From Thermoproteota archaeon (GTDB lineage Archaea > Thermoproteota > Thermoprotei > Thermofilales > B9-G17), in the NCBI GenBank assembly GCA_029258885.1, contig JAPDJW010000002.1:515168-579167 (forward strand): a stretch of DNA of 64,000 nt. The letters run 5' to 3'. Below, in pieces: positions 31,527-49,085 of this stretch. The position numbers and the translations under genes are program-made. Positions within the stretch are counted from its first letter, which is position 1, and every line of letters starts with the position of its first letter. The notes below the pieces were generated by a model, which was not told where the DNA came from, made no database searches, and saw only the letters and a list, made by a program, of their open reading frames with translations.

Positions 31527-34500
31527 CTCTCAATTCTCTTTTTTGAGAGTATTTCTGTAGCGCATGGTTAGAAGGGAGGGATATAGGTATAATTCAAACT
31601 GGAGGGGTGGGCTCTCAATTCTCTTTTTTAGAGTATTTCTGTAGCTCAAAAGAGAAGTCTTAATTCAGGAGCTTAAGGAACTCTAAATCCTTCTTCTCTC
31701 AATTCTCTTTTTTGAGAGTATTTCTGTAGCCTAACTGTGTTAAGATTTTAACGATTAGAGGCAAGGCTCTCTCCTCTCAATTCTCTTTTTTGAGAGTATT
31801 TCTGTAGCAGTTCTGGAGAAGGCGACCTGTCTACTTTGTTTACTTGGGCTTTCTCTCAATTCTCTTTTTTGAGAGTATTTCTGTAGCAGGCTTGAGGAAA
31901 AGGGTTGGATACTACATAAGGTGATAACTCTCAATTCTCTTTTTTGAGAGTATTTCTGTAGCTTCAAATAGAGGATTGGCTTTACGACAGAGAAATCGAG
32001 GAAATCTCTCAATTCTCTTTTTTGAGAGTATTTCTGTAGCAAAGATGTAGTCGAGAATAGATATATGAGAGAAAAATATGCGACTCTCAATTCTCTTTTT
32101 TGAGAGTATTTCTGTAGCAAGCCTGTTTTTCACACCGACAGCCCCGTGGCTGTAAAGAGCTCTCAATTCTCTTTTTTGAGAGTATTTCTGTAGCTGCAGT
32201 GGTGTTTGCGTATGTTATGTATCAGGCGTATATGGCCTCTCAATTCTCTTTTTTGAGAGTATTTCTGTAGCGCTTATGATGAAATAGATAAAGACGGGCC
32301 TAAATGCATAATCTCTCAATTCTCTTTTTTGAGAGTATTTCTGTAGCAGATAAGAGAATTCTGATGCTGAGAAATGAGATTATCATCTCTCAATTCTCTT
32401 TTTTGAGAGTATTTCTGTAGCCAGCAAAATTATTAGTTTTTCTAATTGGGGTTAAAAATGGCCTCTCAATTCTCTTTTTTGAGAGTATTTCTGTAGCAAG
32501 AAGAGAAGGAGACTGGTGGTGGCAAACCAACAGGTACACCTCTCAATTCTCTTTTTTGAGAGTATTTCTGTAGCATTTATGACAGAGACTTTAGTTACAC
32601 TGTCTCCAGAACAACCTCTCAATTCTCTTTTTTGAGAGTATTTCTGTAGCGTTACAGTAATGCTTGTGTATACAGACTTCACATAATTGCCTCTCAATTC
32701 TCTTTTTTGAGAGTATTTCTGTAGCTCAGAAAAAAGGAGAAAAAAGATACATACCTTTCAAAATTGACTCTCAATTCTCTTTTTTGAGAGTATTTCTGTA
32801 GCAGTTAAGAGAAAAGTATGGAGTGGCCACATGGAAACTAATTCCTCTCAATTCTCTTTTTTGAGAGTATTTCTGTAGCTATGGAGCTGTGAACCCGTGG
32901 GATGGCGTAGGATCCGCTACCTCTCAATTCTCTTTTTTGAGAGTATTTCTGTAGCAAAAGTATATAGCATTCACTACAGAGGAATGGGAAAAGTATCTCT
33001 CAATTCTCTTTTTTGAGAGTATTTCTGTAGCACGCCGCCATAACCAACAAGGAGTGGCGTGATGTGGTTATTGACTCTCAATTCTCTTTTTTGAGAGTAT
33101 TTCTGTAGCGAGCTAAAGGAAAAGGAGTTTACAGCCTATGACGTATCAGCTCTCAATTCTCTTTTTTGAGAGTATTTCTGTAGCATAATAAATGTATCCT
33201 ACAGGTATGATTCCTCCACTGACTCCTCTCAATTCTCTTTTTTGAGAGTATTTCTGTAGCGCAAGTTACACTATGCAATTCTCCATGAGCATAAGGCTAA
33301 GACTCTCAATTCTCTTTTTTGAGAGTATTTCTGTAGCCCCTGAGTATCGGGGGCTGGAGTTAATAGGCTTCCTTACTGTTCTCTCAATTCTCTTTTTTGA
33401 GAGTATTTCTGTAGCCAAGAGGATAGTTAAAGCTGGTATCCATCCATTAGAGAAGAGCTCTCAATTCTCTTTTTTGAGAGTATTTCTGTAGCGTGTATGT
33501 ATGAAGGATGTAATTGAAAGATTAAAGAAATTCTCTCAATTCTCTTTTTTGAGAGTATTTCTGTAGCCATGGAATTACGACTGTACACGTAAAGCTTTCA
33601 TTGAGATACGCTCTCAATTCTCTTTTTTGAGAGTATTTCTGTAGCAATAACATATAGGAAATTTGAGGAAATTCAGAAATTACCTAACTCTCAATTCTCT
33701 TTTTTGAGAGTATTTCTGTAGCCCAGATAATGCAAAGTACTTCCTTCGAAGATATTTCACAAACCTCTCAATTCTCTTTTTTGAGAGTATTTCTGTAGCA
33801 TAAAACTGAAAAGAAAATAGCCAATTACAATAATAAGATAACTCTCAATTCTCTTTTTTGAGAGTATTTCTGTAGCCCCGTATTAAAATTGCTTGAAGAA
33901 AAATATAATTTAAGATTTCTCTCAATTCTCTTTTTTGAGAGTATTTCTGTAGCTTAAAGATGAAATTGAAGCAAGAACAAAAGCCAATCAAAAGATCTCT
34001 CAATTCTCTTTTTTGAGAGTATTTCTGTAGCGAAGCTAATATAGTCTTTATAAAGCTCCTAGGATTTCTTAGCCTCTCAATTCTCTTTTTTGAGAGTATT
34101 TCTGTAGCGAATTGAATTTGAATTTGGAATACATAGGTTGGGTATAAACCTCTCAATTCTCTTTTTTGAGAGTATTTCTGTAGCTATCGTTCGGTTTAGA
34201 ATTTGAGTTTGGCATCCACAGATTAGGAACTCTCAATTCTCTTTTTTGAGAGTATTTCTGTAGCGCGACCACTATGCTGCACTCTCAGACAGTGTACACG
34301 GCACACTGGCTCTCAATTCTCTTTTTTGAGAGTATTTCTGTAGCAAAATTATTCATCATAAAATGCTTGAAAATATTCTTAGCGACTTACTCTCAATTCT
34401 CTTTTTTGAGAGTATTTCTGTAGCGCAGGAAGAGAAACGAGAAGATTGATGTTCTCCGTGAAGTATTGGACTCTCAATTCTCTTTTTTGAGAGTATTTCT

Positions 34501-34973
34501 GTAGCTTGGAAAGGATAGGCTCTACTAGTGTTCATTTAGACGGTAATCTCTCAATTCTCTTTTTTGAGAGTATTTCTGTAGCACACAATATAATATGTAT
34601 AGAGTGTCCAGAGAACTAGAAAGAACAATACTCTCAATTCTCTTTTTTGAGAGTATTTCTGTAGCCCAATTTTAAAGATACTTGAGGAAAAATATAATTT
34701 AAGATTTCTCTCAATTCTCTTTTTTGAGAGTATTTCTGTAGCTAAGCAATAGATTTGTAGCGAAAATAAACCAGCTTATAATTAAATCTCTCAATTCTCT
34801 TTTTTGAGAGTATTTCTGTAGCTGGCTGTGAACGGCAGGGTGGTTGAGCCTGAGTACTGGAACGCTCTCAATTCTCTTTTTTGAGAGTATTTCTGTAGCG
34901 TTTTTGTAGGAGTATAGGCGGTGAGGTTAAGGAGAAAGCTCTCAATTCTCTTTTTTGAGAGTATTTCTGTAGC
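31527..34973 (-). CRISPR. CRISPR array 1: 45 repeats of 35 nt, 44 spacers (39-50 nt)
   Basis: The + strand repeat is CTCTCAATTCTCTTTTTTGAGAGTATTTCTGTAGC (first copy 31527..31561, last 34939..34973). The reverse complement GCTACAGAAATACTCTCAAAAAAGAGAATTGAGAG ends in a handle-like ATTGAGAG. The AT-rich leader is on the right flank. The only degenerate copy (1-nt deletion, 31612..31645) is at the far left, so the array is read on the minus strand. Confidence 0.98.
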
Positions 34974-35372
34974 TGTTTTTGTTGTGTTTATATTTTGTCT
35001 CTTTTTGTATTTATGCGTTTCGGTGTTTTAGCAAAACTGCATTCTACGTTTAGCCCTATTTAAAGGGGTATATATACAAATATTTTTCAACTATATAAAA
35101 TCGATGGATAAAATATATAAGCTTGAATTTTTGGCAGCGGATCTTTTTCTCTTTTTAGAAATGATCTTATTGCTATAATTATGAAATTATTAATGTATGC
35201 TGGGGAATATGGTATATTATTTTTAATATTTTTATCTACTTATTAAAAATTTATTTTTGAAAATATTTTTGGAATGTTTTATCATAGTGATTTTTCATGA
35301 AAAGAGAAATAAATCATATATAAAGGGGGTCAATGATTATAAGCCGTAAAATTGCCAAATGTTCAATTTGGT
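34974..35372 (-). promoter_or_regulatory. CRISPR leader of array 1 (inverted duplicate of leader 2)
   Basis: AT-rich ~400 bp abutting the last repeat. Its reverse complement aligns by eye with 47501..47898, near-identical over the ~170 nt next to the repeats (including TTTGTATATATACCCCTTTAAATAGGGC) and over a distal ~75-nt block. Confidence 0.8.
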
Positions 35373-35406
35373 TAATGTTATATTTTTGTTTGCTGTTTTA
35401 TTGTTT

Positions 35407-37604: not shown

Positions 37605-39203
37605 GTGTCTAGTAGGCCGATTGGCTATGTGGCTTTCGATACTAAGGTTGATACCCAGTATTCTAGCCTCTCCGCTATAAACGTGTTTATGGATAATATT
37701 GATAAGATCCATAGGGGCAAGTATGTCCGCATAGACTCTACTGAGGGTAGGAGGTTTGTTGGGCAGGTTGTAGCTGGCCCATTCTATATGCCTGAGGGGC
37801 TTAGCCCCAGCTCTCACGTTGCTCAAGCTTTTACGATTAGGGGTGAGAGGTTTAAGTCTCTTCCACCCTACTACGCCGTCTTCTACGTTGAGATACTTGG
37901 TGAGTGGGAGAAGGAGTTTAAGTCCACCTATACTAAGCCTAGGCCTAAGTCCCCCGTATACGAGATGGGTGCTCTCGAGATATCGGATATCCTCGGCCTA
38001 AGCAAGGGTGACATGGTTTTAGGCCATCATATCGGGTATAAGGGCGTTAAGATTAAGCTTCCATCAAGCCACATGGACGTTTTACCTAGGAACGTCGGCA
38101 TATTCGGAACCGTTGGCAGCGGGAAGACTAATACAGCACAGGTTCTCATAGAGGAGGCCGCGAGACACAACTGGAGTGTTATAGTGATAGATATTGAGGG
38201 CGAATACACCTACATGGACTATCCGAACGACGACCCCGAGATGTATGAAGTACTGAAGAGCATATACGGCATCGAGCCGTTTAAAATAGAGAATTTCCAC
38301 GTATTCGTCCCCGTAGGTAGGGATTCTACGCGTGGAAGCGAGGCAGTTAGATTCGGTATACCGTTCTTCCAGATAAACCCGTACGTGTTGGCCGAGATTA
38401 TCAGGGCTACCGAGCCACAGCAGAGGTATCTGAGCATAGCTATAGGTGAGCTTTTAAGCCTAAGGGAGGGAAGCGGAGCCGAGGAGGCTACGGAGTTCGA
38501 GGAGTTCGCCTTCGGAGGCTCCAAGGAGGTTGAGCCTATAACTCTCGAGGAGGTAATTAACCATATTGAAAGTAAGATTAGCTCTACTAGGGATAGGGGT
38601 GTCGTCTCCGCCCTAACCGCGCTATCGACGAAGCTTAGGAGGCTTGACCTTTACGGCGTTATTGATGAGGGCAAGCCTATAGACTTCAGCTCTATACTTA
38701 AGCCAGGCCACGTTTCGGTCCTAGATGTAAGCGATGTTGAAGATAACGTTAGGAATATATGTATAGCCTGGCTCCTCGACACAGTGTTTAACCTTAAGCT
38801 TAGGGATGTCGAGAGGAAGCTGCCTAAAATCATGATCGTAATTGAGGAGGCACACGCCTTCGTAAGTAAGGAGGTTAGGGATAAGATGGAGGCTACGATC
38901 GACCTGCTTAAGAGGATAGCTAGGAGGGGTAGGAAGAGGTGGATATCCCTCGTATTCATATCCCAGCAGCCCGGCCACCTCCCGCCGGAGATATTCGAGC
39001 TATGTAACACTAGAATTATACATCAGCTTAGAAGCGAGATGAATATTAAGGCTATTAGGGAGACCACCGGAGCATTAACGAGGGAGCTTGCCCGGAATAT
39101 AGTCAACCTATCGAAGGGTGAGGCTATAGTCACATCCCCCGTACTAAGGTATCCAGTACTATGTAAGATAAGGCCAGCCGCTACCAAGAGGTTTAAACAC
39201 TAG
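37605..39203 (+). CDS. herA: HerA-family (FtsK/HerA superfamily, DUF87) ATPase
   Basis: HAS-barrel-like N-terminus 'IGYVAFD...GKYVRIDSTEGRRFVGQVV', Walker A 'GIFGTVGSGKTNTAQ', 'VIVIDIEGEY', Walker B 'IMIVIEEAHAFV', 'LVFISQQPGHLPPEIFELCNTRIIHQLR'. Confidence 0.85.
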   Translation: MSSRPIGYVAFDTKVDTQYSSLSAINVFMDNIDKIHRGKYVRIDSTEGRRFVGQVVAGPFYMPEGLSPSSHVAQAFTIRGERFKSLPPYYAVFYVEILGEWEKEFKSTYTKPRPKSPVYEMGALEISDILGLSKGDMVLGHHIGYKGVKIKLPSSHMDVLPRNVGIFGTVGSGKTNTAQVLIEEAARHNWSVIVIDIEGEYTYMDYPNDDPEMYEVLKSIYGIEPFKIENFHVFVPVGRDSTRGSEAVRFGIPFFQINPYVLAEIIRATEPQQRYLSIAIGELLSLREGSGAEEATEFEEFAFGGSKEVEPITLEEVINHIESKISSTRDRGVVSALTALSTKLRRLDLYGVIDEGKPIDFSSILKPGHVSVLDVSDVEDNVRNICIAWLLDTVFNLKLRDVERKLPKIMIVIEEAHAFVSKEVRDKMEATIDLLKRIARRGRKRWISLVFISQQPGHLPPEIFELCNTRIIHQLRSEMNIKAIRETTGALTRELARNIVNLSKGEAIVTSPVLRYPVLCKIRPAATKRFKH

Positions 39204-39846
39204 ATTTAAGGAGGGATTTAACTAGCCTGTATGCTTCAGCTATATCCAGCTTGGAATCCCTACTCCTCAGCCTATTTATCATTCTCCTTACAAACCTCCT
39301 GTCCTCACTCCTTAAGTCCTCAAGCTTTAACATCTCCCTTAGAGCGGATATCATGAGTAGTTTCGCATACTTCACCTGCCCGGTGGTGGTTGCTTTGCTT
39401 GCTATAGCCAGCGATTTTTCGGCTTTACCGAATATAATCTTTCTCCAATCTTTAGCCTTCCTCTCCCTCACTTCATATAGTGCATATCCCTCAAAGACTA
39501 TAGCTCCCCTTAACCTAAGCTGCTTAGGTAGTTTCTGCCTCCATGGGGCTACGTATACGTTCTCAGATATTCTCCTTAAACCGCATTTATCTAGGTTTTC
39601 TCCGACAGCTACTATTACCCTATCTCCCTTAACGCTGCCGCTTTCTAGGGCTTTTAACCCGCATAGGGTTAGTGTAATGTATCCTCCATCCACATTGATG
39701 TAGCCCTTCTCTATCAGGCTGTTTAATGCGCTCGATAATCCGCTTACATCTTCATCTATCGACTTAGCCAGATTGGAAATGCTTATTTTACCCTTCCTCT
39801 TAACTATCTAAAGGATATTTAGTTCAACTATGCTAAGTGTATCCAC
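39193..39846 (-). pseudogene. wHTH protein gene interrupted by an in-frame TAG (39808..39810); paralog of 39847..40548
   Basis: The track ORF starts at GTG 39693. The same frame continues upstream as 'IVKRKGKISISNLAKSIDEDVSGLSSALNSLIEKGYIN', and beyond the TAG as 'MDTLSIVELNIL' (GTG 39846). Together these form a complete wHTH. Confidence 0.55.
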
Positions 39847-40548
39847 ATGTATAGTTTAGAGCAATGCAGGATTTTAGGTTTACTGGTAATGTTTAGAAAT
39901 ATCCACCTAGCGGACATATCATTCTACCTGGACGCTAGGATGGATGATATTCTCACCTACTGTAGAAGCCTGCGGGGCTACGGCTTCCTAAAGCTCCATG
40001 AGAATTCAGCATTGATTACCGAGGCCGGAATACGTGCATGCCTAGGGGATCTCGCATTCAGTGGACGGAGATGGTTTATTCTAGTGGTGGATCCATCTGG
40101 TGCGCCGAGGGAGATGGATTTCGTGAACGTTAGGGGACAAGCATACGTAACTCCCTTTACCCTTCAGATGCTCGAGCTAATTAAGCTGCTCTATCGGGAG
40201 ATCTTCGTAGTCTCATCAAAGGCCTGCAGTATATGGATTAGGATGGCTGAGGATAGGATGCCGTACCGCAGAATTATAGACGTCATGAGGACTATAGAGG
40301 ATATTCAAGATAAACTATCTAGGCTGAGCTATCCCCGTTCGAGCAGATACGTTAAAGCTATCATATCCAGGCTTAACAGGTGTAGGAGGGAGCTTGAGAA
40401 GGCCGCTAGGATAGCTAAGCTTGATTTCAGGCTAGTAGGGCTAAATAGATCCTTCTCGAGGGATCCGCTAAGCTATTCTAGGGAGCTGTACGGGGTAGCC
40501 TTATCGTGTAGGGATAAGGTTCTACGTAGTGCTGAGGGTCTTAGATAG
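39847..40548 (+). CDS. wHTH domain protein, putative regulator (paralog of the gene on the opposite strand)
   Basis: 'LEQCRILGLLVMFRNIHLADISFYLDARMDDILTYCRSLRGYGFLKL' wHTH. The downstream region aligns by eye with the 39193..39846 product ('QAYVTP' vs 'NVYVAP'). Confidence 0.55.
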   Translation: MYSLEQCRILGLLVMFRNIHLADISFYLDARMDDILTYCRSLRGYGFLKLHENSALITEAGIRACLGDLAFSGRRWFILVVDPSGAPREMDFVNVRGQAYVTPFTLQMLELIKLLYREIFVVSSKACSIWIRMAEDRMPYRRIIDVMRTIEDIQDKLSRLSYPRSSRYVKAIISRLNRCRRELEKAARIAKLDFRLVGLNRSFSRDPLSYSRELYGVALSCRDKVLRSAEGLR

Positions 40549-40819
40549 CTATATCCTCCTCCTCATGTATCTCGTAGTTGTGTATTATCGTGAGGACTTT
40601 AGCTTCGTCTCGTCCACATATTGGTATGGCTATAACCCTAGCTTTACTTGGACCTATTATCCTCCTTATTTCGCTCATTATCCCCTTTATTTCGGCGGCT
40701 GAAGCCTCGAATAGGAATGCGCTGTACTGTATCCTATCTCCGCCCATATCCTTAAGGTATCTCCTAACCTCATTCCTAATGCTGTCATCTGATATGTCGT
40801 AGACTATAATGTACTTCAA
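40541..40819 (-). CDS. cas2: Cas2
   Basis: 'MKYIIVYDISDDSIRNEVRRYLKDMGGDRIQYSAFLFE' is a typical Cas2 N-terminal ferredoxin-fold signature. 92 aa. Confidence 0.85.
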   Translation of the reverse strand: MKYIIVYDISDDSIRNEVRRYLKDMGGDRIQYSAFLFEASAAEIKGIMSEIRRIIGPSKARVIAIPICGRDEAKVLTIIHNYEIHEEEDIAI

Positions 40820-40870: not shown

Positions 40871-41335
40871 ATGACGCGTATAATTAAGATGTTTCTCGAG
40901 GATAACGTGTTGTCGGTTTTAATAGATTTAGTTGCTCTGGATGAAACGTTTGGAGAACGCTCACGCGAAGTACTGGGTAAAGTTGTGTCTAGAGTGGAGG
41001 CCATCCTTCTAGCTCATGGAGGCAGAAACCTAGAGAGGGAGGAAGGTCTGACTTACGTTAAGGTTAAATGTAAAATTAATCCGAGGAGCTACGGCTACGT
41101 CGAGAGGAGCCTCACATCCCTAGAGGATGAAGTTAGGAGGAAGCTGGGGCTGGTTGAACACCTTGTTGCAGTATTTAGGAGTACCTCCAAGCTGTCTCCG
41201 TATCTCGTGAGCTTCTATGAGGTTTCCCCCGCGCTCCCTAGGAGCCCGGAGGGCTATAGAGTTACTTCACGGATAGCCAGAATCCTATCGAGGGAGAGGA
41301 GAGTTATCTGGGCGAGTACGGCCTCGGAGTCCTAG
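40871..41335 (+). CDS. Hypothetical ORF; its last ~40 codons appear to be the start of the Argonaute N-domain
   Basis: 154-aa ORF. From about 'LSPYLVSFYEVSPALPRSPEGYRV' it resembles the first strands of long pAgo N-domains. An in-frame GTG is present at 41207. Confidence 0.4.
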   Translation: MTRIIKMFLEDNVLSVLIDLVALDETFGERSREVLGKVVSRVEAILLAHGGRNLEREEGLTYVKVKCKINPRSYGYVERSLTSLEDEVRRKLGLVEHLVAVFRSTSKLSPYLVSFYEVSPALPRSPEGYRVTSRIARILSRERRVIWASTASES

Positions 41336-42120
41336 GCTATCTCGTTAAGCCGGGAGTTTCTATTGAGGATAGCTTTAAGGTATACGTTGGAGATAGGGAG
41401 TACACCTTAAATAAGCTGCGCGATAGGCGTCTCAACTTTAACCTTAGAGGCGATAGGGAGTTCTTCAAAAAGATCGTTGATAGGGGTATTAGAAGGAAGT
41501 TCCGTGAGCTAGGGTTTAGGGTTCGCGGATACATAGTGGTCTATAGCCAGCCCATATACTCATATGAGTATGTGGATGTTTGGCCAGCATGTGAGTTCCA
41601 GACTATAATTGATTCGGATGGCACGCTATCCCTCGCCTTATCGCCGAGACATATCATCGAGTCGATGAGGAGCATAATGGAGGACTACGAGAGCTTAGAG
41701 GAGCTGGTTAAAAGGAGGCGGGAGCTAGTGGGATGCAGTGTTAGAAGTATCGTTGATGGACAAGTATACAGGATAGTTTCGGTGCTCGATAAGAGGGCGA
41801 GGGATTCATTTGAGGAGCTCAACGGTTCAAGCCTATGCGAGTTCTATAGGGACTACAATATCGACCCAATGGAGCCAGCTATAGTTATCGAGAGGTATGG
41901 TTTCAGGCTCCTCCACGCTCCCTCACTTCTAAGGAGGATATATAGTCCAGCTGAACTGGCAGGTTTAGGCGTAGCTAGGGAGGTTATGAGAGCCATAAAG
42001 CTCAACCTGCTAAGGTGGAGCGATACCTCACGCAACATTGTTAGAACGTTATCTCCCATAGAGATAGATGGAATCGAGATAAGGTTCTCCGATCAGCCCG
42101 AGGTTCTCGAGGTGGCGTAG
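41260..42120 (+). CDS. Argonaute N-terminal half (N-L1-PAZ-L2), frame-disrupted near 41263; no canonical start before GTG 41536
   Basis: The frame is open from 41260. L1-like 'VDVWPACEFQTIIDSDGTLSLALSPRHIIESMRSIMEDY'. PAZ-like 'QVYRIVSVLDKRARDSFEELNGSSLCEFYRDYNIDPMEPAIVIERYGFRLLHAPSLLRRIYSPAEL'. It resembles PfAgo-type long pAgos as I remember that sequence. Confidence 0.6.
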   Translation, partial: SYFTDSQNPIEGEESYLGEYGLGVLGYLVKPGVSIEDSFKVYVGDREYTLNKLRDRRLNFNLRGDREFFKKIVDRGIRRKFRELGFRVRGYIVVYSQPIYSYEYVDVWPACEFQTIIDSDGTLSLALSPRHIIESMRSIMEDYESLEELVKRRRELVGCSVRSIVDGQVYRIVSVLDKRARDSFEELNGSSLCEFYRDYNIDPMEPAIVIERYGFRLLHAPSLLRRIYSPAELAGLGVAREVMRAIKLNLLRWSDTSRNIVRTLSPIEIDGIEIRFSDQPEVLEVA

Positions 42121-42121
42121 C

Positions 42122-43069
42122 ATCTACAGGGAGTTCTGTGATTGGGGCTACATCCTCGCTCCACGTAATGGGGAGATTATAGCTAAGGGACAGATTGAAG
42201 CGGGCAGATTTAAGCCCAAGGATAGGATAGTTCTCTCGGGCTCCGGCTCAATAAATGTCGATGCTGTGGCGAATATCGTCGGTGCGGGAGGCTCAATTTT
42301 GGTTGAGAAGGGATCTATACAGCTAGACTACTTCAACTCTATGTTCTCACGTAACCTGCTGGCTCAGCTCGCGTCTGTGGAGAATTCTGAGGTTAGGAGC
42401 AGAGTTGCCTCCTCTATATTGGAGGCTGCTGCATATAATAAGATTAGGGTTCTGGAGATACTGGAGGTTCCCGAGGACGTTAGGAGCAGGGTTGTCGGGG
42501 AGATTAAGGGGCTTATATCGATGCTTAAAGGAACTGTTCTAAGCAGATTGATGGGCGTTGAAGCTAGAATAACCAAGCTCTACTTCGAGGCTCTAAGATA
42601 CGTAATTCCCGTGGAGTATGGTTTTAAGGCTAGAACGCGTAGACCCCCTAAGGACTACTTTAGCGCTGCACTAAGCTATGGGAACATGCTCCTCTACAGA
42701 CACGTACTTAAGGAAATACTTAGGTTCGGCCTGGATCCTAGGCTAAGCTACCTCCATACGCCCTATAGGCATAGGCCATCGCTAGCGCTCGATATAGCCG
42801 AGGAGTTTAGGCAGGCCGTGGTTGATCTAGCAGTTATTCCGCTCTACACGTCGAGGTCTATGAGCATTAAGGGGGACTTCCAGGTTTTCGGCTCATCCAT
42901 ATACCTCAATAAGCGTGGAAACTTTAAGGTTAGGAGGAGCTTCCACCACAGGATGAACCTTAGAGTTAAGGGGAGGAGCCTCGCCGACGCAGTAAGAGGT
43001 CAGATTAGGAAGCTGCTGGAGTTCATCCACGGCGATAGGAGCGAATATACTCCGTTCAGAATTCAATAG
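42122..43069 (+). CDS. cas1: Cas1 (canonical catalytic motifs); conserved N-terminus lacks a start codon (track start GTG 42266)
   Basis: 'RIVLSGSGSINVDAVANIVGAGGSILV', 'GVEARITKLYFEAL', 'GLDPRLSYLHTPYRHRPSLALDIAEEFRQAVVD' (E, H, D/E motifs). Confidence 0.85.
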   Translation: MYREFCDWGYILAPRNGEIIAKGQIEAGRFKPKDRIVLSGSGSINVDAVANIVGAGGSILVEKGSIQLDYFNSMFSRNLLAQLASVENSEVRSRVASSILEAAAYNKIRVLEILEVPEDVRSRVVGEIKGLISMLKGTVLSRLMGVEARITKLYFEALRYVIPVEYGFKARTRRPPKDYFSAALSYGNMLLYRHVLKEILRFGLDPRLSYLHTPYRHRPSLALDIAEEFRQAVVDLAVIPLYTSRSMSIKGDFQVFGSSIYLNKRGNFKVRRSFHHRMNLRVKGRSLADAVRGQIRKLLEFIHGDRSEYTPFRIQ

Positions 43070-43313
43070 TATCTATTATAATGATATTTTCATAGCATCT
43101 CCTACATGGAAATATTATATCGACCCTCCCAGCCCCCTCCGCAACGATTCTCCTAATGTCGTTAATCATCCTCTCGGCGTTTTTCTCGTCCAGCTCTACC
43201 TCATAAACGCTGTACTCCCTGAAAACGCCGCCGTAGTCCTTAAGCCTATTCCTTAATCTATCCCTAAGCCTATCATATCCAACTGGGATATCGAAGACGA
43301 CTATTATCTTCAA
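43056..43313 (-). CDS. cas2: Cas2 (second copy)
   Basis: 'MKIIVVFDIPVGYDRLRDRLRNRLKDYGGVFREYSVYEVEL'. 4-nt overlap with the upstream cas1-like gene. Confidence 0.8.
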   Translation of the reverse strand: MKIIVVFDIPVGYDRLRDRLRNRLKDYGGVFREYSVYEVELDEKNAERMINDIRRIVAEGAGRVDIIFPCRRCYENIIIIDTIEF

Positions 43314-44179
43314 TAAACCGCCTCCTTAAACGGTATAAAGCCTCCAGCCGGATTCATCAGATAGGATGCAAGCCCCTTCGCAGCGGCCTTTATGTGTTTA
43401 AATAGAGGCATCCTCCTACCATCAGTATCCTCAACGTTCCTCTCAACGATATTCCTAAGATACTTCAGGAGAAGCCTCCTCCCCTCATAGCTACCTAAGT
43501 CGATGGATGAAAGGATGTCGGAACCAACTTCAACGAGGCAACGCCAGACAGTCGATGGCTCAAATACTAGAAGGAAATCCCTTGTAAGCGATCTCCTATT
43601 TACGAAGCCTATGTGTGGGGTTAAGCCAGCCCTAACCACGGCGTCCAGACATTCTGCTTCAATAAAATAGCTGAGATACTGGATAACTGACTCGATTAGG
43701 CTAAGTTTTACTCCAAGATATCTTGATAAAAGCTTAAGCGCATTAACCCTAACTTCCTCCAGCTCCCCCTCGGCCCTGAATGGAAGGTTAAGTCTCGAGA
43801 AAAAGGCGCAGAGGTTATGGTTGAATGCCTCCCTAATGCATGAAGCTATCTCCTCAGCTCTCGAGGTAGAGTACTGGGTTAATATCAGCTCAACGTGCTT
43901 CCTTTGAAGCATCCCCGTAAACCACGCTATCCTATCCTTAAATACCAGAGCTATGGTTACGTTATCCTCTGAAGCCAGCGATAGAGCCGATGTACTTATC
44001 CTCCTACATCCATCCAATACTAGGAGGTAGGCAGTTAAGGAGGCTATCTCACGTCTACGATCTCCAGCCTCAACTACGAAGCGCCTACTCCTACGGCCTA
44101 AATTAAAGCCATTGTACGCTATCCAGTAGCTCCTCCTCAACCAATCCCCTTGATCATAGTATATAGTTTCCTTATCCAC
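43310..44179 (-). CDS. cas1: Cas1-like protein, divergent (conserved His replaced)
   Basis: 'GLTPHIGFVNRRSLTRDFLLVFEPSTV' aligns with the Cas1 'GldP.lGflH....sLa.DlmEefR' block but has Asn in place of His. 289 aa. Confidence 0.65.
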   Translation of the reverse strand: MDKETIYYDQGDWLRRSYWIAYNGFNLGRRSRRFVVEAGDRRREIASLTAYLLVLDGCRRISTSALSLASEDNVTIALVFKDRIAWFTGMLQRKHVELILTQYSTSRAEEIASCIREAFNHNLCAFFSRLNLPFRAEGELEEVRVNALKLLSRYLGVKLSLIESVIQYLSYFIEAECLDAVVRAGLTPHIGFVNRRSLTRDFLLVFEPSTVWRCLVEVGSDILSSIDLGSYEGRRLLLKYLRNIVERNVEDTDGRRMPLFKHIKAAAKGLASYLMNPAGGFIPFKEAVY

Positions 44180-44967
44180 GGCCTAGGCTCAACCCTACCC
44201 TCCCTAATAATGATCACGCCCCGCTCCTCAAGCTCTTTAATTCTCTCGTACCCTATAATATCCTTTAAATCGGCCAGTGATATGTGTGGGAAAATCCTAT
44301 CTATGAGGGAGAGGAATTCCTCCTTTACAGTTATCGGCAGCAGGGGGAGTGCCACAACCTCCCTGAAGGACTCATGTATATAATATACCTTATCCGCTCC
44401 CATAACCATTGAGATAATGGTGGCGAATGAGGTTTCAGGCTTAAAGCCAGCAGTAGCATTAACGTAGACCCTGTATCCAGCATTCTTCTTACTCTTAACG
44501 ACCCCAGCAATTTTATCTATTAAATTGGATAAAGCCTCATCGAAGAGCGAGGCGCCGAGCCCGAAGCCCCTAACCCTAACGGGCTCATTAACGTAGTACC
44601 CCCTAGACTTAAGGTGTTCATAAACTATCCTTCCACATAGATATCCGGTGCCGGTATCAGTGGTATATAGCCCTATCTCAATATCCTCAATCCTCGATGG
44701 ACCGTAGAGGTCGGTGAACCTGTAGAATGCGTTAAGCTCAGCACTAGCACTATAGGGATCAGAGTTCACATACTCCAGAAGCCTATCGAAAACCTTGGAA
44801 CCCCTATGGGCGGAAGCCTCAGCCTTCTTCTGATCATCATGGTCGGGTGGAAGCCTACCCCACGAACTTATTTTAAGCTCCTCAGCCTCATCCTTAAAAG
44901 TCCTTGCAAAGTTTAGGAGGATTGCAGTTCCAACCGTAACCACGTGAAATACCTTCATAGATACCAC
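44137..44967 (-). CDS. CARF-domain protein of the APE2256 type with probable C-terminal wHTH
   Basis: 'FHVVTVGTAILLNFA', 'SAELNAFY', 'YVNATAGFKPETS' (CARF signature). C-terminal 'ISLADLKDIIGYERIKELEERGVIIIREGRV'. Confidence 0.6.
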   Translation of the reverse strand: MVSMKVFHVVTVGTAILLNFARTFKDEAEELKISSWGRLPPDHDDQKKAEASAHRGSKVFDRLLEYVNSDPYSASAELNAFYRFTDLYGPSRIEDIEIGLYTTDTGTGYLCGRIVYEHLKSRGYYVNEPVRVRGFGLGASLFDEALSNLIDKIAGVVKSKKNAGYRVYVNATAGFKPETSFATIISMVMGADKVYYIHESFREVVALPLLPITVKEEFLSLIDRIFPHISLADLKDIIGYERIKELEERGVIIIREGRVEPRPWIRKLYTMIKGIG

Positions 44968-44997
44968 AAAAATATAACAGCATAACGAGTATATAAA

Positions 44998-45711
44998 ATG
45001 ATGCTACGTGGATACAGTCGCCTAGCAGCCTCAGGCATAAATAGAATGGTTAGAGTAACGGATGTCACGTTATACCTCTTCTGTCCGCGGAAACTCTACC
45101 TAGTGGGCTTCCTAGGGATAAGAGGCAGGCCGACTAGGGAGAGCATTATGGGTAAATTGGCCCACTACGCATACCTAAGGGCAAGCATCCTAAAGATAAC
45201 CGAGAATAGGGTGGAGGAGGAGAGCGTGAATATAGCTAGAGAGGCAGTCGAGAAGAAGCTTACGGAGGGGCTAAGCGATACGGAGGTCAAGGAGATAGTT
45301 GTAAAAACCTTAAGGTTTAGGGCTGAAAACCCGATTACGGGTGGGGTTGAGGTCGAGAAGTACGTTGAATCGGTAAGGCTGGGGTTAAACGGACAGATAG
45401 ACCTAATGGAGGAACATACGCCAGTGGAGGTAAAGTACAAGTCCAGAGCTGAATACAGGGATCTAATACAGCTAACACTCTACACACTACTACTCGAGGA
45501 CGTCTACGGGTGGGATATAGATTACGGCTACATCGATCTACTTAAGGCTTCAAGAAGGTTAAGAATTGAAGTAAATAATAGGCTTAGAGGTGATGCGCTT
45601 AAGCTTAGGGATAAAGTGCAGGAGACAATACTAATGGGGACGTATCCGCCAGCTAGGGATAAGTGTAGGGGATGCGACCTAAAGATAGAGTGTAGATCCC
45701 TCTTCCACTAG
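44998..45711 (+). CDS. cas4: Cas4 (RecB-like nuclease with Fe-S cysteines)
   Basis: N-terminal Cys in 'LYLFCPRKLYL', 'IDLMEEHTPVEVKYK' (D..EVK), 'QLTLYTLLLE' (QxxxY), C-terminal 'CRGCDLKIEC'. Confidence 0.85.
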   Translation: MMLRGYSRLAASGINRMVRVTDVTLYLFCPRKLYLVGFLGIRGRPTRESIMGKLAHYAYLRASILKITENRVEEESVNIAREAVEKKLTEGLSDTEVKEIVVKTLRFRAENPITGGVEVEKYVESVRLGLNGQIDLMEEHTPVEVKYKSRAEYRDLIQLTLYTLLLEDVYGWDIDYGYIDLLKASRRLRIEVNNRLRGDALKLRDKVQETILMGTYPPARDKCRGCDLKIECRSLFH

Positions 45712-46910
45712 AGGAACCAGAGCCTAGAATAATACTCCTCCGACGGCGATACACCCAACCTAAGGAAGCTACATATCCTATGGGCATACAAAGTCGTTAT
45801 TGGAAGCCTAGTTGAAGCAAACGCTGAAGCCCAGTGTAGCTCGCTCAACCAGTACACATCCCTGGCAATATCATACATACTAACCTCCCAGTTAGATGCC
45901 TCAGCCAGCTCAACAACAACCGGCCTAACCAATCCAGACACATCAATATAGGGGTGCTCCGGGAAGCCTGAGGTAACCACAAGATACCTATATTTATCAA
46001 GCACATAGAACGTACCTTTCTCCGGATTAGTAACTCTTCTCCCAACCCTCCTGGTAACCCTAGGCACAGCCCTCTTCTTAACCTCAACAAAAACCCAGTT
46101 AGATGCAACGCCCTCATCAACAGCCGAGTCCATAACATCCCTAACCGCTTCAAGCTCAACATCAAAGGTAGAGCCATCCCTATGAACAACTATTAAATTA
46201 ACCCTACCAGCATGCCTATGAATAACGTCGAGAGCGAGCGTAAGCACATTCCTAATCGAATAGATAACCTCAACCCCGGGATTAAACTCGAAGCGCCAGT
46301 CGAAGAATATGCCCCCATCAAACACGAAGACTGTTACAACAACGTTGTTACCGACAGTATCCAAGCCAATATACGCATCACCTAAAAGCCTATCCCCCAA
46401 AACCCAAGGTATTCCCCCAGCCTTACAGTAGATAGACAGAGCTAAATTAAAGAGAACATAGGATTTACCCGCAAGCCTTCTAATAGTAGAGTATGTAACC
46501 ATTTGACTAGGAATCCCACGTAGAGCTAAAGCCTGCTTAATAGGAACATAGGGATCCTCCTCAAAACCCGGATAGTTTTCATCGGGAACAGCTACGATAG
46601 CTACATCAACATCCTCAATTGAATCGATGACATCAGCGTACCTATCATATGATTCAAAGAAGTACTCAACGTCCCCAACCCTACAGCCAAACCATCCAGT
46701 AAGACCTCCAAAACCCCTAACACCATAGATAAGGTTATCCATGAGGACACGAGAGTAGCTATACATTCCACGAGGACAGATAAAACAGAGCCTAACAGCA
46801 TCAGGACCGGAGAAAGGACCGAAGCCGAGTTTAAACCCCTCATAGGGGAAAATAGAGGTACCACTCCCAAACCTTAAAACAGGCCTAGAGAAGACGCCTC
46901 CCCTAACCAT
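45708..46910 (-). CDS. Argonaute MID-PIWI half (400 aa) with apparent DEDH catalytic tetrad
   Basis: MID pocket pattern 'PYVPIKQ...GIPSQMV...SIYCKAGGIPWVL'. PIWI 'AYIGLDTV' (D), 'GVEVIYSIRNVL' (E), 'LIVVHRDGS' (D), 'LPITTLYAHRICSF' (H). C-terminal 'RLWFL'. Confidence 0.8.
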   Translation of the reverse strand: MVRGGVFSRPVLRFGSGTSIFPYEGFKLGFGPFSGPDAVRLCFICPRGMYSYSRVLMDNLIYGVRGFGGLTGWFGCRVGDVEYFFESYDRYADVIDSIEDVDVAIVAVPDENYPGFEEDPYVPIKQALALRGIPSQMVTYSTIRRLAGKSYVLFNLALSIYCKAGGIPWVLGDRLLGDAYIGLDTVGNNVVVTVFVFDGGIFFDWRFEFNPGVEVIYSIRNVLTLALDVIHRHAGRVNLIVVHRDGSTFDVELEAVRDVMDSAVDEGVASNWVFVEVKKRAVPRVTRRVGRRVTNPEKGTFYVLDKYRYLVVTSGFPEHPYIDVSGLVRPVVVELAEASNWEVSMYDIARDVYWLSELHWASAFASTRLPITTLYAHRICSFLRLGVSPSEEYYSRLWFL

Positions 46911-46975: not shown

Positions 46976-47386
46976 CTATAAGCTGCCTCTAGGAAAGAGG
47001 GGACCCCCAGACACAAGCTTCAACACGTATTTAAAGTACTCCCTAAAGTGATCCGCCAAATAACTCCTCTCAGAGGACTTAAGCTCAGCAAGCTGTTCCT
47101 CTATAAACACATCATCGTCATCGGGCTCCATTCTGAAATACTTCGTAAGAAACTTGGCAGTAACCAGTATGTAGAAGTCGCCGAGACTTAAAATAGCGTA
47201 GGCTGGCGGAATACCCGAACCATAAATCCTCACATGATACTTCCACGCCTCAAGAGCCTCCTGAGCCATCGGATACACATCACCACTCTCATACCCACAC
47301 CTCGGACAAACAACACCCTCCCTAAACACAGCGTAGCGAGTACCACAAGACGGACACCTATAATTATACGAAGAATGATACGTCAC
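46976..47386 (-). CDS. Zn-ribbon protein, upstream neighbour of the MID-PIWI gene
   Basis: 'CPSCGTRYAVFREGVVCPRCG' (CxxC...CxxC) plus a ~95-aa uncharacterised domain. A minus-strand TTTTATATATGGG lies ~35 nt upstream of the ATG. Confidence 0.6.
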   Translation of the reverse strand: MTYHSSYNYRCPSCGTRYAVFREGVVCPRCGYESGDVYPMAQEALEAWKYHVRIYGSGIPPAYAILSLGDFYILVTAKFLTKYFRMEPDDDDVFIEEQLAELKSSERSYLADHFREYFKYVLKLVSGGPLFPRGSL

Positions 47387-47500: not shown

Positions 47501-47898
47501 ACCAAATTGTACTTTTGGCAATTTTACGGCTTATAGTCATTGACCCCCTTTATATACGGTTTACTTCTCTTTTTGCGAAAAACTTCTATGATATTTTTAT
47601 CCAAAAAATATTTGAAAAATAATATTTTAATATTTAAATCAATATTCTTAATACTATTCAATAATTATAGTGAATATAATTAAAGATTATTTAACTCAAT
47701 GATAAAATTATTTTTGAAAAGTGAATAGGGCTTGCTGCCAAAAATTCGATCTTATATATTTTATCCGTCAAAAATATATAACTAAAAAATTTTTGTATAT
47801 ATACCCCTTTAAATAGGGCTAAACGTAGAATGCAGTTTTGCTAAAACACCAAAACACATAAATACAAAAAGAGACAAAAAATAAACACAGCCAAAACA
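47501..47898 (+). promoter_or_regulatory. CRISPR leader of array 2 (inverted duplicate of leader 1); TATA-like TGTATATATA at 47794..47803
   Basis: AT-rich ~400 bp ending at the first repeat. It aligns with the reverse complement of 34974..35372. Confidence 0.8.
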
Positions 47899-49085
47899 GC
47901 TACAATAAAACTCTCAAAAAAGAGAATTGAGAGGCCTTGTGATGTGGAAGTATAGTCGCTTGATGGCATCTGCTCTGCTACAATAAAACTCTCAAAAAAG
48001 AGAATTGAGAGGCAATATTGGCTGTGTCGTTGCCTATAAGATACAATGGGTATATCGCTACAATAAAACTCTCAAAAAAGAGAATTGAGAGAGGCAGTCA
48101 TATCGTGTTGCCTTCTCCATCCTCTTGGCAAGTATCGCTACAATAAAACTCTCAAAAAAGAGAATTGAGAGATTTTTCCACAATATGGTGAATTCACTTG
48201 AGTGTTCTGTCTTAGCTACAATAAAACTCTCAAAAAAGAGAATTGAGAGATATACTCGTCAATTTTCGTTAACGCCTCTGTTAAGTCCTCGCTACAATAA
48301 AACTCTCAAAAAAGAGAATTGAGAGATATAATCTAGTTTCATCTACCTCGCTTTCAAAGAGACCAACGCTACAGAAATACTCTCAAAAAAGAGAATTGAG
48401 AGTAGCATTTTGAGTAATTTAACGATTTTATCCCACTCTTCTGCTACAGAAATACTCTCAAAAAAGAGAATTGAGAGTCTTCATCAGTTACCTTGAATGG
48501 CAAGTTCTCTATTCTTACTTGCTACAGAAATACTCTCAAAAAAGAGAATTGAGAGAGACATAGTCTTTTACCACAGTAATGTAGCCGTCAATAATGCTAC
48601 AGAAATACTCTCAAAAAAGAGAATTGAGAGGCATGCCTAGTCGTAACCGGCGGCATACTAATTCTCATAAGCGCTACAGAAATACTCTCAAAAAAGAGAA
48701 TTGAGAGTATAGAAGCGTTTACTTTTCTTTTCTCCTCATTAAGCTTATTGCTACAGAAATACTCTCAAAAAAGAGAATTGAGAGGATAGGGATTTTAGGT
48801 TATTCTAATTCTTTTTTCAATTTCGCTACAGAAATACTCTCAAAAAAGAGAATTGAGAGGAATTATGCTCAGTTTTTAGGTATTGCTTAATGACTTTTAT
48901 GCTACAGAAATACTCTCAAAAAAGAGAATTGAGAGAGCATGTTAGTGTACATCTCTACAACATCCTTTAATGTCATGCTACAGAAATACTCTCAAAAAAG
49001 AGAATTGAGAGATACTGATGTAGAATTCTTTCGAGGTTCTTTTAAATACTGCTACAATCCTAATAAATGACCTAAGGAGGATTGG
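47899..49085 (+). CRISPR. CRISPR array 2: 15 full repeats + 1 degenerate terminal repeat, 15 spacers (39-45 nt)
   Basis: Repeats 1-6 are GCTACAATAAAACTCTCAAAAAAGAGAATTGAGAG. Repeats 7-15 are GCTACAGAAATACTCTCAAAAAAGAGAATTGAGAG (last full copy 48977..49011). The degenerate copy is GCTACAATCCTAATAAATGACCTAAGGAGGATTGG at 49051..49085. The leader is on the left. Confidence 0.97.

Follow-up and report, generated by a model that had tools for sequence, protein, structure and literature searches.

A conserved archaeal CRISPR adaptation cassette with two types of Cas1, two types of Cas2 and a split Argonaute

Why should a single archaeal CRISPR locus encode two Cas1 proteins, one with a complete active site and another without it, and what is the role of the CARF gene that heads the operon of the latter? 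We addressed these questions for a 64,000-nucleotide stretch of a Thermoproteota genome (hereafter, the window). A sequence-only reading of the locus had described it as two adaptation pairs and proposed that the CARF-led operon of the divergent Cas1 (Cas1') and its Cas2 (Cas2') responds to cyclic oligoadenylate (cOA). We prefer one conserved supermodule to two independent pairs, and estimate the chances at about even (0.5) that the region forms the centre of a spacer-acquisition supermodule conserved in archaea, in which Cas1' acts as a non-catalytic partner in a heteromeric, Argonaute-linked integrase.

Layout and gene content of the cassette

The cassette and the flanking arrays are arranged as follows.

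31527..34973, minus strand: CRISPR array 1, 45 x 35-nt repeat, leader toward the cassette
39847..40548, plus strand: w233, a conserved cassette protein with homologues in the L004, L006, L007, L011, L016 and L019 clusters
40541..40819, minus strand: Cas2, 92 aa (PF09827, E=2.1e-17)
40871..42120, plus strand: pAgoN, N/L1/PAZ-type half of a split Argonaute, frameshifted here (tblastn, PADLOC pAgo profiles)
42119..43069, plus strand: canonical Cas1, E/H/D/E site complete (PF01867, TIGR00287)
43056..43313, minus strand: Cas2', 85 aa (PF09827, E=2.2e-13)
43310..44140, minus strand: Cas1', 276 aa from TTG 44140; the longest ORF reaches GTG 44179
44137..44958, minus strand: CARF-wHTH gene (PF09651), first gene of the CARF-Cas1'-Cas2' operon
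44959..44997, no strand: putative divergent promoter with a pair of back-to-back TATA-like boxes, AAAAATATAA and TTTATATA, the latter on the opposite strand
44998..45711, plus strand: Cas4, 237 aa, divergent from the CARF operon (TIGR00372, 83.4 bits, cutoff 65; PF01930)
45708..46910, minus strand: MID-PIWI half of the split Argonaute, 400 aa (PF02171, PADLOC pAgo)
47899..49011, plus strand: CRISPR array 2, 15 repeats, leader toward the cassette

The five genes recognized earlier (Cas1, Cas1', Cas2', CARF and Cas2) exist and their identities were confirmed by profile matches; sequence and coordinates likewise bear out the 4-nt overlap of Cas1' and Cas2' (TTGA, an AAGGAGG box being present at Cas2') and the 14-nt overlap of the convergent Cas1 (+) and Cas2' (-). 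Some gene borders had to be revised. The start previously given for Cas1, 42122, falls on an ATC codon, and although the first in-frame ATG, GTG or TTG is found at 42266, the N-terminal domain is encoded from approximately 42119. The CARF gene does overlap the 5' end of Cas1', but by 4 nt (TTGA) rather than by 43 nt; family alignment places the start of Cas1' at TTG 44140, and the CARF gene probably starts at ATG 44958. The interval 44959..44997, read off the sequence, may be a short divergent promoter.

Canonical Cas1 matches PF01867 (E=6.8e-46) and TIGR00287 (164.8 bits against the cutoff of 71.7) and contains 'YLHTPYRHRPSLALDIAEEFR'; E148, H213, D225 and E228 do not vary among 9 orthologues, and its dN/dS values are 0.11-0.22 (0.22 for the N-part, 42122-42298). 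Both Cas2 proteins pass the Cas2 thresholds (63.5 bits for Cas2 and 50.6 bits for Cas2', PF09827 cutoff 23.8). They belong to two distinct conserved orthologous groups, in both of which the N-terminal Asp of beta-1 (D8) is invariant, while the Cas2' group is characterized by a 2-aa insert, a PCxxC motif and the lack of a C-terminal tail. Comparison of Cas2' with its L001 counterpart revealed 14 synonymous and 0 non-synonymous changes (dN/dS 0.00).

Cas2 had been considered orphaned, 1.3 kb away from Cas1. In fact most clusters have Cas2 in this place, oriented divergently to the Cas1-coupled gene for the Argonaute N-half, and the gap is filled by one conserved gene for a protein of approximately 416 aa, pAgoN, whose reading frame is disrupted in the window by the loss of 1 nt from a G run (41309-41311). 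Searches by tblastn with intact homologues switch there from frame 1 to frame 3, and L021 and L041 have GGGG at this place and an intact 416-aa ORF. The pAgoN stop abuts the coding start of Cas1 here, and the two genes overlap in relatives. The pAgoN homologues match PADLOC pAgo profiles at positions ~5-285 of 666 and 20-336 of 742 (E down to 1.9e-22), and a profile search matched the regions 146-319 of CbAgo (E=3.5e-5) and 85-180 of TtAgo; judging by these matches, pAgoN is the separately encoded N-L1-PAZ-L2 half of a long-type Argonaute. The other half, the MID-PIWI protein (PF02171, E=4.2e-16; PADLOC pAgo, E=1.9e-66), carries a DEDH-type tetrad (IGLD, E214, HRDG, YAH377) aligned with the catalytic positions of CbAgo, and the relatives possess the same pair, a ~400-aa N/L1/PAZ protein and a ~400-aa MID-PIWI protein with the DEDH tetrad. 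The split Argonaute is thus predicted to be slicing-competent. The frameshift in pAgoN and the lack of a canonical start codon in Cas1 may mean that the module is impaired in this particular strain.

Fold and lost catalytic residues of the second Cas1

The Pfam Cas1 family (PF01867) matches the N-domain of Cas1' with 35.9 bits (cutoff 22.3) and the PADLOC Cas1 profile matches its C-domain (E=1.2e-11); the TIGR00287 score, 30.3 bits, is under the cutoff of 71.7. Alignment with the partner Cas1 family by hhalign gave a probability of 99.35% (E=6.6e-21). The AF2 model (pLDDT 91.3, pTM 0.90) has the two-domain Cas1 fold, N-terminal beta and C-terminal helical, and its top Foldseek matches are Cas1 and casposase, with TM 0.70-0.76 to 2yzs, 4xtk, 4n06, 4wj0 and 6opm. 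The Pfam, PADLOC, hhalign and fold results agree with the earlier designation of the divergent copy as Cas1-like, and by its modelled fold Cas1' is a true Cas1.

The catalytic tetrad of Cas1 consists of E141, H208, D218 and D221 in E. coli numbering (PMC4046053). Cas1' carries 'GFVNRRSLTRDFLLVFEP', and its catalytic columns read R/N/D/L (Glu to Arg, His to Asn, Asp kept, Glu to Leu), so that 1 of the 4 residues is retained; the replacement of the metal-binding His by Asn, reported by the sequence-only reading, is correct, and the acid at D+3 is lost as well (Leu). Cas1' therefore neither keeps all catalytic residues nor falls outside the Cas1 homologues, and the role of a non-catalytic scaffold, suggested for it earlier, is reasonable for a Cas1 homologue lacking the catalytic set. 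The family is small (27 representatives among 1.8 billion proteins). The full set is missing from every member, and 31 of 40 sequences have Leu in place of the D+3 acid. Asgard-type Cas1' proteins have E, H and D at 3 of the 4 catalytic columns and Glu at D+4, and given these residues the family may not be uniformly inactive. The dN/dS of Cas1', 0.13, indicates purifying selection.

As to the affiliation of Cas1', two known groups were considered. Cas1-solo group 1, found only in Methanomicrobiales, is not CRISPR-associated and lacks the full catalytic set (Krupovic et al., 2014, PMC4046053). Cas1' resembles it in belonging to the Cas1 fold family and in having no member with all four catalytic residues; however, it is encoded within CRISPR adaptation cassettes, found in Thermoproteota and Asgard archaea (in the window, between two arrays), and HMM cross-scores reveal no particular affinity between the two (with the solo1 HMM, the partner Cas1 scores 41-63 bits but the window Cas1' 3.5 bits; with the Cas1' HMM, solo1 scores 24 bits at most), which excludes this group. 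The affinity to casposases (Cas1-solo group 2), a group characterized by strict conservation of the four catalytic residues and by a PolB/TIR context, is not decisive: they provide the best PDB sequence match of Cas1' (6opm, E=0.002) and its best reference scores (52 and 49 bits), but the advantage over the Cas1 of P. furiosus (46 bits) is marginal and the catalytic set is absent. No PolB was found among the cassette genes scanned.

Conservation of the module and the possible role of Cas1'

Cas1' was found in 17 locus clusters, in MAGs of Thermoproteota and Asgard (Baldrarchaeota). The sequence-only reading missed its constant partners: in all 14 clusters with a contig extending far enough in that direction, a canonical, catalytically intact Cas1 adjoins Cas1', and 16 of the 17 clusters have a PIWI gene on the contig of Cas1', counts which come from short metagenomic contigs found via PIWI or Cas1' and are thus biased toward linked loci. 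Cas4 is kept in the L007, L011 and L015 clusters, and the w233 homologue in L004 has weak TrmB/HTH_45 matches (a weak wHTH). In the 11 clusters of type A, Cas1' and Cas2' are TTGA-coupled and co-conserved, and Cas1 is coupled to pAgoN; in the Asgard-type loci (L004, L006), Cas1 and Cas1' overlap by 4 nt and Cas2' is absent after Cas1'. In the literature searched, we found no description of a module combining Cas1, Cas1', two Cas2 types and a split Argonaute.

On both sides of the cassette lie arrays with related 35-nt repeats, in the window as well as in L007, L011 and L016. Within the window, the two leaders have about 165 nt in common at approximately 95% identity, and the spacers are about 40-44 nt long. 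Six leader-proximal repeats of array 2 have a 3-nt variant, which indicates fairly recent spacer acquisition.

In solved Cas1-Cas2 integrases, only one protomer per Cas1 dimer uses its active site. From this rule we suppose that Cas1' is most likely the permanent non-catalytic protomer of a Cas1-Cas1' heterodimer. The module contains the active Cas1, the dead Cas1', Cas2 and Cas2', Cas4 and the Argonaute predicted to slice; in this model, Cas2 and/or Cas2' would bridge two Cas1-Cas1' dimers, and the complex would insert spacers of ~40-44 nt at the conserved leader-repeat junctions of both flanking arrays. The gene overlaps (TTGA from CARF to Cas1' and from Cas1' to Cas2'; pAgoN to Cas1; Cas1 to Cas1' in Asgard-type loci) suggest stoichiometric co-production, and the couplings hint that the Argonaute physically works with the integrase. 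We may tentatively go further and propose that the split Argonaute, coupled physically as well as translationally to a heteromeric Cas1-Cas1'-Cas2-Cas2' integrase, supplies or selects prespacers for the type III arrays, the dead Cas1' serving as an adaptor, either to confer asymmetry on the integrase or to dock the Argonaute.

The type A couplings, Cas1' with Cas2' and pAgoN with Cas1, fit two separate complexes equally well. In that case Cas1' and Cas2' would form an inactive integrase-shaped complex of their own, (Cas1')4(Cas2')2, which would capture, measure or store DNA fragments, e.g., Argonaute cleavage products, and pass them to the active Cas1-Cas2 integrase or compete with it as a brake. 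The co-conservation of the coupled pair in all 11 type A clusters, where Cas1 goes with pAgoN instead, the PCxxC signature of Cas2' as a distinct orthologous group and the zero non-synonymous change of Cas2' relative to L001 speak for such a complex. The Asgard-type loci, with their Cas1-Cas1' overlap and without Cas2' following Cas1', imply that Cas1' does not need Cas2', and the strict adjacency to the active Cas1 is more simply explained by a shared complex; we therefore regard the separate complex as somewhat improbable.

As for the CARF gene, its earlier identification and the wHTH tail suggested for it hold: the protein matches PF09651 (E=8.4e-37, 126.5 bits), and its residues 6-270, the C-terminal part included, align with 7pq2 (E=1.7e-32) and 3qyf (E=3e-28). 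It is, by sequence homology, a relative of the Crn1 ring nucleases Sso1393/Sis0811, whose known job is the degradation of cA4; its NF040951 score, 109.4 bits, is below the equivalog cutoff of 600. The position of Sso1393 Lys168 is kept (AGFKPE); that of Ser11 is Ala in the window and in L001 and Ser in L007, L011 and L015. In Sso1393, the S11A mutation lowers kcat 32-fold and K168A is inactive. The gene could also have been Csa3, but TIGR01884 (Csa3) gave no match and the family is APE2256/Crn1.

The proposal that this protein senses cA4 of the type III system and switches on or modulates Cas1'/Cas2', and hence spacer uptake, is in our view unlikely. It gains from the place of the CARF gene, which leads the operon and has a TTGA overlap with Cas1' both in the window cluster and in that of L007 (where Cas1' is only 33-35% identical), from the wHTH present by homology, from the Ala at the Ser11 position, which would favour sensing over degrading, and from the type III effector, Csx1 and Csm6-like gene encoded within the window. 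Against it, only 2 of the 17 clusters have the CARF gene immediately upstream of Cas1'. A CARF gene lies elsewhere on the contig in 6 others, a Crn1-type gene being beside PIWI or HerA in L029, L035, L031/32 and L011 and a different short CARF occurring in L026 and L043, and none was seen on the remaining Cas1'-bearing contigs. Moreover, Ser11 is kept in the L007, L011 and L015 homologues, the protein is akin to Crn1 and not to Csa3, and the wHTH of Sis0811, in the part of its description available, is reported to auto-inhibit cA4 cleavage, with DNA binding not reported there. Thus, the translational coupling of the CARF-wHTH gene to Cas1'-Cas2' in the window stands, while the cOA-responsive unit is not favoured; the gene would rather be a local, facultative addition, most likely removing cA4 from the neighbouring type III system.

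That Cas1' is a decaying duplicate or a casposon-like remnant without present function, as the lost catalytic residues and the casposase matches might imply, is largely refuted by its low dN/dS, its confidently predicted fold, its maintenance at 22-38% identity in two archaeal phyla in the same cassette each time, the lack of PolB among the genes scanned and the marginal casposase score edge.

Relation to known systems and significance

Known integrases contain four identical Cas1 protomers, two of them catalytic. The module with its presumed non-catalytic Cas1' shares with the canonical integrase (Cas1 4 : Cas2 2, accompanied by Cas4 in archaeal type I/III systems) the folds, the intact E/H/D/E site of Cas1, Cas2 and Cas4, and adjacent leader-repeat arrays; the differences are an additional conserved Cas1 that lacks the catalytic set and an additional Cas2 orthologous group.

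Two split or CRISPR-linked Argonautes are comparable in part. AfAgo of Archaeoglobus fulgidus is a split Argonaute with an N-L1-L2 partner and is not known to possess slicer residues. Its structure (1w9h) is among the best PDB sequence matches of our MID-PIWI half, and in both cases the MID-PIWI and N-terminal halves come from separate genes; here, in contrast, the DEDH tetrad is present, the N-half has PAZ-region similarity and the context is a cas1/cas2 cassette. The MpAgo-type Argonautes of Marinitoga and Thermotoga (M. kandleri is also cited), whose genes stand between cas1 and cas2 in type III-B loci, likewise lie within a CRISPR adaptation or type III locus, and their interplay with spacer acquisition was proposed, not shown (PMC6299218, PMC5995195). 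These are single-chain long-A pAgos, mostly bacterial and with one Cas1, whereas here two genes encode the Argonaute, the one for the N-half is coupled to cas1, and the locus includes a dead paralogue of Cas1.

Two CARF systems are relevant as well. Csa3a of Sulfolobales is a CARF-wHTH transcription factor that activates adaptation genes, a precedent linking cA4 signalling to spacer uptake. The window protein resembles it as a CARF-wHTH protein encoded beside adaptation genes but differs in family, as its profile matches show. To Sso1393/Sis0811 it is homologous over the full length (E about 1e-28 to 1e-32), the C-terminal region included, and it has kept the catalytic Lys; it is distinguished from them by Ala at Ser11, by the operon with cas1'-cas2' and by the NF040951 score (109 vs. 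600 bits).

Current cas annotation pipelines would call the cassette merely "two cas1 genes". Its presence in MAGs of both Thermoproteota and Asgard suggests that the module is either old or spreads horizontally. If the integrase is indeed heteromeric, with a pseudo-enzyme among its subunits, it would illustrate how the functional asymmetry within a Cas1 dimer can become genetically fixed, and it might have a defined orientation or spacer length. Ever since Argonaute genes were noticed by cas1/cas2, the question has been whether Argonautes and CRISPR systems act together in spacer acquisition, and the reviews consulted call it untested; the cassette offers a compact, conserved and testable case. 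If the split Argonaute does supply or select the prespacers, this would mean Argonaute-primed adaptation, a direct mechanistic bridge from Argonaute innate defence to CRISPR memory.

Two Cas1 and two Cas2 proteins

The genes and repeats discussed are the following; related loci and contigs compared with the window are designated by L and a number.

Genes and CRISPR elements of the window
21588-24275, Cas10 with HD domain
31527-34973, CRISPR array, 35-nt repeat (same as in array 2)
34974-35140, leader segment adjoining the first repeat
35359-36453 and 37605-39203, HerA-type ATPase and conserved 364-aa protein
39193-39693, w166, conserved protein; single weak match (L011, E=2e-4)
39847-40548, w233, conserved protein; weak wHTH in one homologue
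40541-40819, minus, Cas2
40871-42120, plus, pAgoN, one half of a split Argonaute
42119-43069, plus, partner Cas1 (canonical)
43056-43313, minus, Cas2', second Cas2
43310-44140, minus, Cas1', divergent Cas1 paralogue
44137-44958, minus, CARF protein
45708-46910, minus, PIWI (MID-PIWI half of the Argonaute)
46976-47386, 136-aa zinc-ribbon protein
47733-47898, leader segment of array 2
47899-49011, CRISPR array 2, 35-nt repeat (same as in the first array)

On the plus strand lies a canonical Cas1 gene, as the sequence-only reading had held: the motif quoted there is present, TIGR00287 matches with 164.8 bits (cutoff 71.7), and E148, H213, D225 and E228, which occupy all four E. coli-equivalent positions, are invariant in nine orthologues. 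In E. coli Cas1 the catalytic residues are E141, H208, D218 and D221, and Ala at any one of them kills the nuclease activity (PMC4046053). The start of the gene had to be corrected, as the codon at 42122 is ATC and the first canonical start does not occur before 42266; in the region 42077-42266 no ATG, GTG or TTG is available to the N-terminal domain in the window, nor is one in L001, L021 or L041. Against L001, a 96%-identical metagenomic contig, dN/dS is 0.22 in the part that precedes the first canonical start codon and 0.11 in the C-part; this purifying selection implies that the preceding part is translated. In the window a single nucleotide separates the pAgoN stop codon from the reading frame of Cas1, and since the Cas1 ATG of relatives abuts or overlaps the pAgoN stop, we suspect reinitiation at a near-cognate codon. 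A programmed +1 frameshift joining pAgoN and Cas1 was considered and dropped, because the ATG starts of relatives are separate and GCG-TAG-C offers no cognate slip.

The minus-strand ORF 43310-44179 is likewise the Cas1 homologue it was taken for: Pfam Cas1 matches its N-domain (35.9 bits, cutoff 22.3), PADLOC Cas1 profiles match its C-domain (E=1.2e-11), and it aligns profile to profile with the partner Cas1 family at a probability of 99.35% (17% identity). AlphaFold2, given a family alignment of 24 sequences, returned a confident model (pLDDT 91.3, pTM 0.90), whose best PDB structure matches are all Cas1 or casposase (TM 0.70-0.76). At the four catalytic columns the Cas1' of the window carries R, N, D and L, followed by V. 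Among 40 family sequences, not de-duplicated, the Glu column shows no conservation. At the His position N (13), H (8) and E (6) occur along with other residues; D or E predominates at the Asp position, 31 sequences have Leu in place of the D+3 acid, and no member possesses the full catalytic set. Because E, H and D persist in the Asgard-type members, these may be not wholly inactive. A 533-aa 'Cas1'' ORF in L026, examined as a possible fusion, proved to be no more than an ORF prolonged upstream through GC-rich DNA.

Cas1' is not a decaying copy: its dN/dS against L001 is low (0.13; 0.00 for Cas2'), which argues against the idea of a pseudogene. Divergence from L001 is mosaic across 41731-46910, PIWI, Cas4 and the CARF gene being 98.4-99.0% identical (dS ~0.04) and Cas1', Cas2', Cas1 and pAgoN 88-95% identical (dS 0.2-0.35), a pattern that points to recombination with its breakpoint between Cas1' and the CARF gene.

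Relationships of Cas1' were assessed by scoring HMMs crosswise, with 15 sequences of a published alignment as references. Placement with solo Cas1 or with casposases, considered at the outset, found no decisive support. No specific similarity was seen to Cas1-solo group 1, a known Cas1 lineage devoid of the catalytic set and not linked to CRISPR (PMC4046053). Casposases scored marginally best with the Cas1' profile (52 and 49 bits, with 46 bits for P. furiosus Cas1); they require the full catalytic set that Cas1' lacks.

Both Cas2 genes were borne out by profile matches and form two separate orthologous groups, each conserved across loci. The N-terminal Asp is kept in both; in Cas2' strand 1 is followed by an insert of two residues, a PCxxC motif is present, and the C-terminal tail is missing. 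The other Cas2 had been regarded as orphaned from the canonical Cas1, but the intervening DNA is pAgoN, which adjoins Cas1, and this Cas2 therefore stands in its conserved place.

Split Argonaute and conserved gene order

The 400-aa ORF at 45708-46910, missed by the sequence-only reading, encodes a MID-PIWI protein (PADLOC pAgo, E=1.9e-66), in which IGLD, E214, HRDG and H377 fall on the catalytic positions of CbAgo when the two are aligned. The unannotated ORFs 40871-41335 and 41536-42120 are one gene, pAgoN, as intact homologues (376-439 aa) align over both, with the frame switch at ~41310. The G run at 41309-41311 is GGG in the window and GGGG, with an intact 416-aa ORF, in L021 (98.6% identical) and L041 (96%); the missing G reflects a mutation of this strain or else an error of assembly. 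Homologues of pAgoN correspond to the opening ~285-336 positions of profiles for full-length pAgo (E down to 1.9e-22), and its profile matches CbAgo residues 146-319 and TtAgo residues 85-180, which identifies pAgoN, at the level of profile similarity, as the N/L1/PAZ half of an Argonaute. With the C-half of pAgoN as the query, a word-index search for homologues returned none.

When 1.84 billion representative proteins were scanned exhaustively with HMMER, only 27 relatives of Cas1' (257-285 aa) emerged. The word-index search found one 95% relative with Cas1' as the query and five with the family alignment; a genome-contig scan with the Cas1' alignment gave 171 pattern matches, with no relatives among them. 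Loci were collected from contigs encoding family members, from a scan of GTDB genomes and from a scan of JGI metagenomes with the PIWI alignment, and were merged at 90% nucleotide identity into 28 clusters. Cas1' is present in 17 of these. A catalytically intact Cas1 adjoins it in all 14 clusters whose contig extends to that side, and a ~400-aa PIWI gene shares its contig in 16 of the 17.

Gene orders
Type A (Thermoproteota): <Cas2 pAgoN> Cas1> <Cas2' <Cas1' PIWI>
Type B (Baldrarchaeota and relatives): <Cas2 pAgoN> PIWI> w233> Cas1> Cas1'>

In type B loci Cas1 and Cas1' overlap by 4 nt. In most clusters w233 accompanies Cas2 and pAgoN; its place in Asgard-type loci is between PIWI and Cas1. 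The HerA-type ATPase (PADLOC matches include 'HerA, Type III coevolved') and the 364-aa protein accompany the cassette in the clusters of the window, L011, L013/30, L015 and L016.

CARF gene, type III genes and CRISPR arrays

The predicted CARF gene with a wHTH tail was confirmed, and its protein aligns with chains 7pq2 and 3qyf over residues 6-270; 3qyf yielded K168 under the Sso1393 numbering applied. We take 7pq2 to be the S. islandicus homologue Sis0811. Sso1393 and Sis0811 are ring nucleases of the Crn1 type, each with a wHTH at its C-terminus. Because the protein shows no match to TIGR01884, we class it by sequence as Crn1-type and not Csa3. Its start is most likely ATG 44958. Gene overlaps do exist as originally described, but that between CARF and Cas1' is shorter: with Cas1' most likely starting at TTG 44140, it comprises only TTGA, shared with the CARF stop.

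The active-site Lys of Sso1393 is kept, and Ala takes the place of Ser11 solely in the window lineage, the Ser being retained by the orthologues of L007, L011 and L015. Ser11 is called absolutely conserved in the ring-nuclease paper; S11A lowered kcat of Sso1393 32-fold and K168A was inactive. Since the S11A change slowed Sso1393, a sensor-like role of the CARF protein is possible in this strain; such a role is not a property of the cassette. Only two clusters, those of the window and of L007, have the CARF gene immediately before Cas1'; a Crn1-type gene adjoins PIWI in L029, L035, L037 and L031/32 and HerA in L011, and was not seen on the contigs of the remaining clusters. Another CARF family (L027:2659-4176, L028:8258-8821, L052:99-1778; 506-559 aa where complete, the L028 copy being truncated where its contig stops), whose N-terminus is CARF and whose C-terminus may be PIN-like, lies directly downstream of PIWI in split-Argonaute loci with no Cas1 or Cas1' in view; it hints at a broader link between Argonaute and cOA.

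The window also contains a type III effector cluster (the Cas10 gene and several RAMP genes), a Csx1 gene and a Csm6-like gene. The repeat end ...ATTGAGAG indicates that both leaders point toward the 12-kb block between the two arrays, within which the Cas1, Cas1' and Argonaute genes lie. The last ~165 nt of the leaders are ~95% identical and are likely to be the region of integrase/leader recognition. In array 2 the six leader-proximal repeats (47899-48325) carry a 3-nt variant, GCTACAATAAAA... versus GCTACAGAAATA..., which fits six acquisitions following a mutation in the first repeat. Related 35-nt-repeat arrays flank the cassette in L007, L011 and L016. The zinc-ribbon protein, encoded between PIWI and the array 2 leader, is found in L021 as well.

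Proposed role of Cas1'

Given that Cas1 and Cas1' are strictly paired, that Cas1' has a dead active site and is under purifying selection, and that genes overlap, we infer a heteromeric integrase, in which Cas1' would be a permanent non-catalytic protomer and to which the Argonaute would be functionally attached. The main rival is a separate, inactive complex of Cas1' with Cas2'. Ranking lower are the pseudogene and the proposal of the sequence-only reading that CARF, Cas1' and Cas2' constitute a cOA-responsive unit; the loss of catalytic residues from Cas1', noted there, holds, but the unit finds no support, given that CARF precedes Cas1' in two clusters only.

The MpAgo group and M. kandleri provide the only known cases of Argonautes in CRISPR loci (PMC6299218, PMC5995195), and our search for Argonaute with cas genes returned solely these associations; the MpAgo-group Argonaute is single-chain, whereas here it is split into pAgoN and MID-PIWI. 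Matches for an inactive Cas1 paralogue were mostly off-subject Cas12/Cas13 papers, and no description of a dead Cas1 paralogue or of this cassette was found in the searched literature, which is incomplete and offers absence of evidence only. The locus is a larger object than was first described, a CRISPR adaptation module in a new form.
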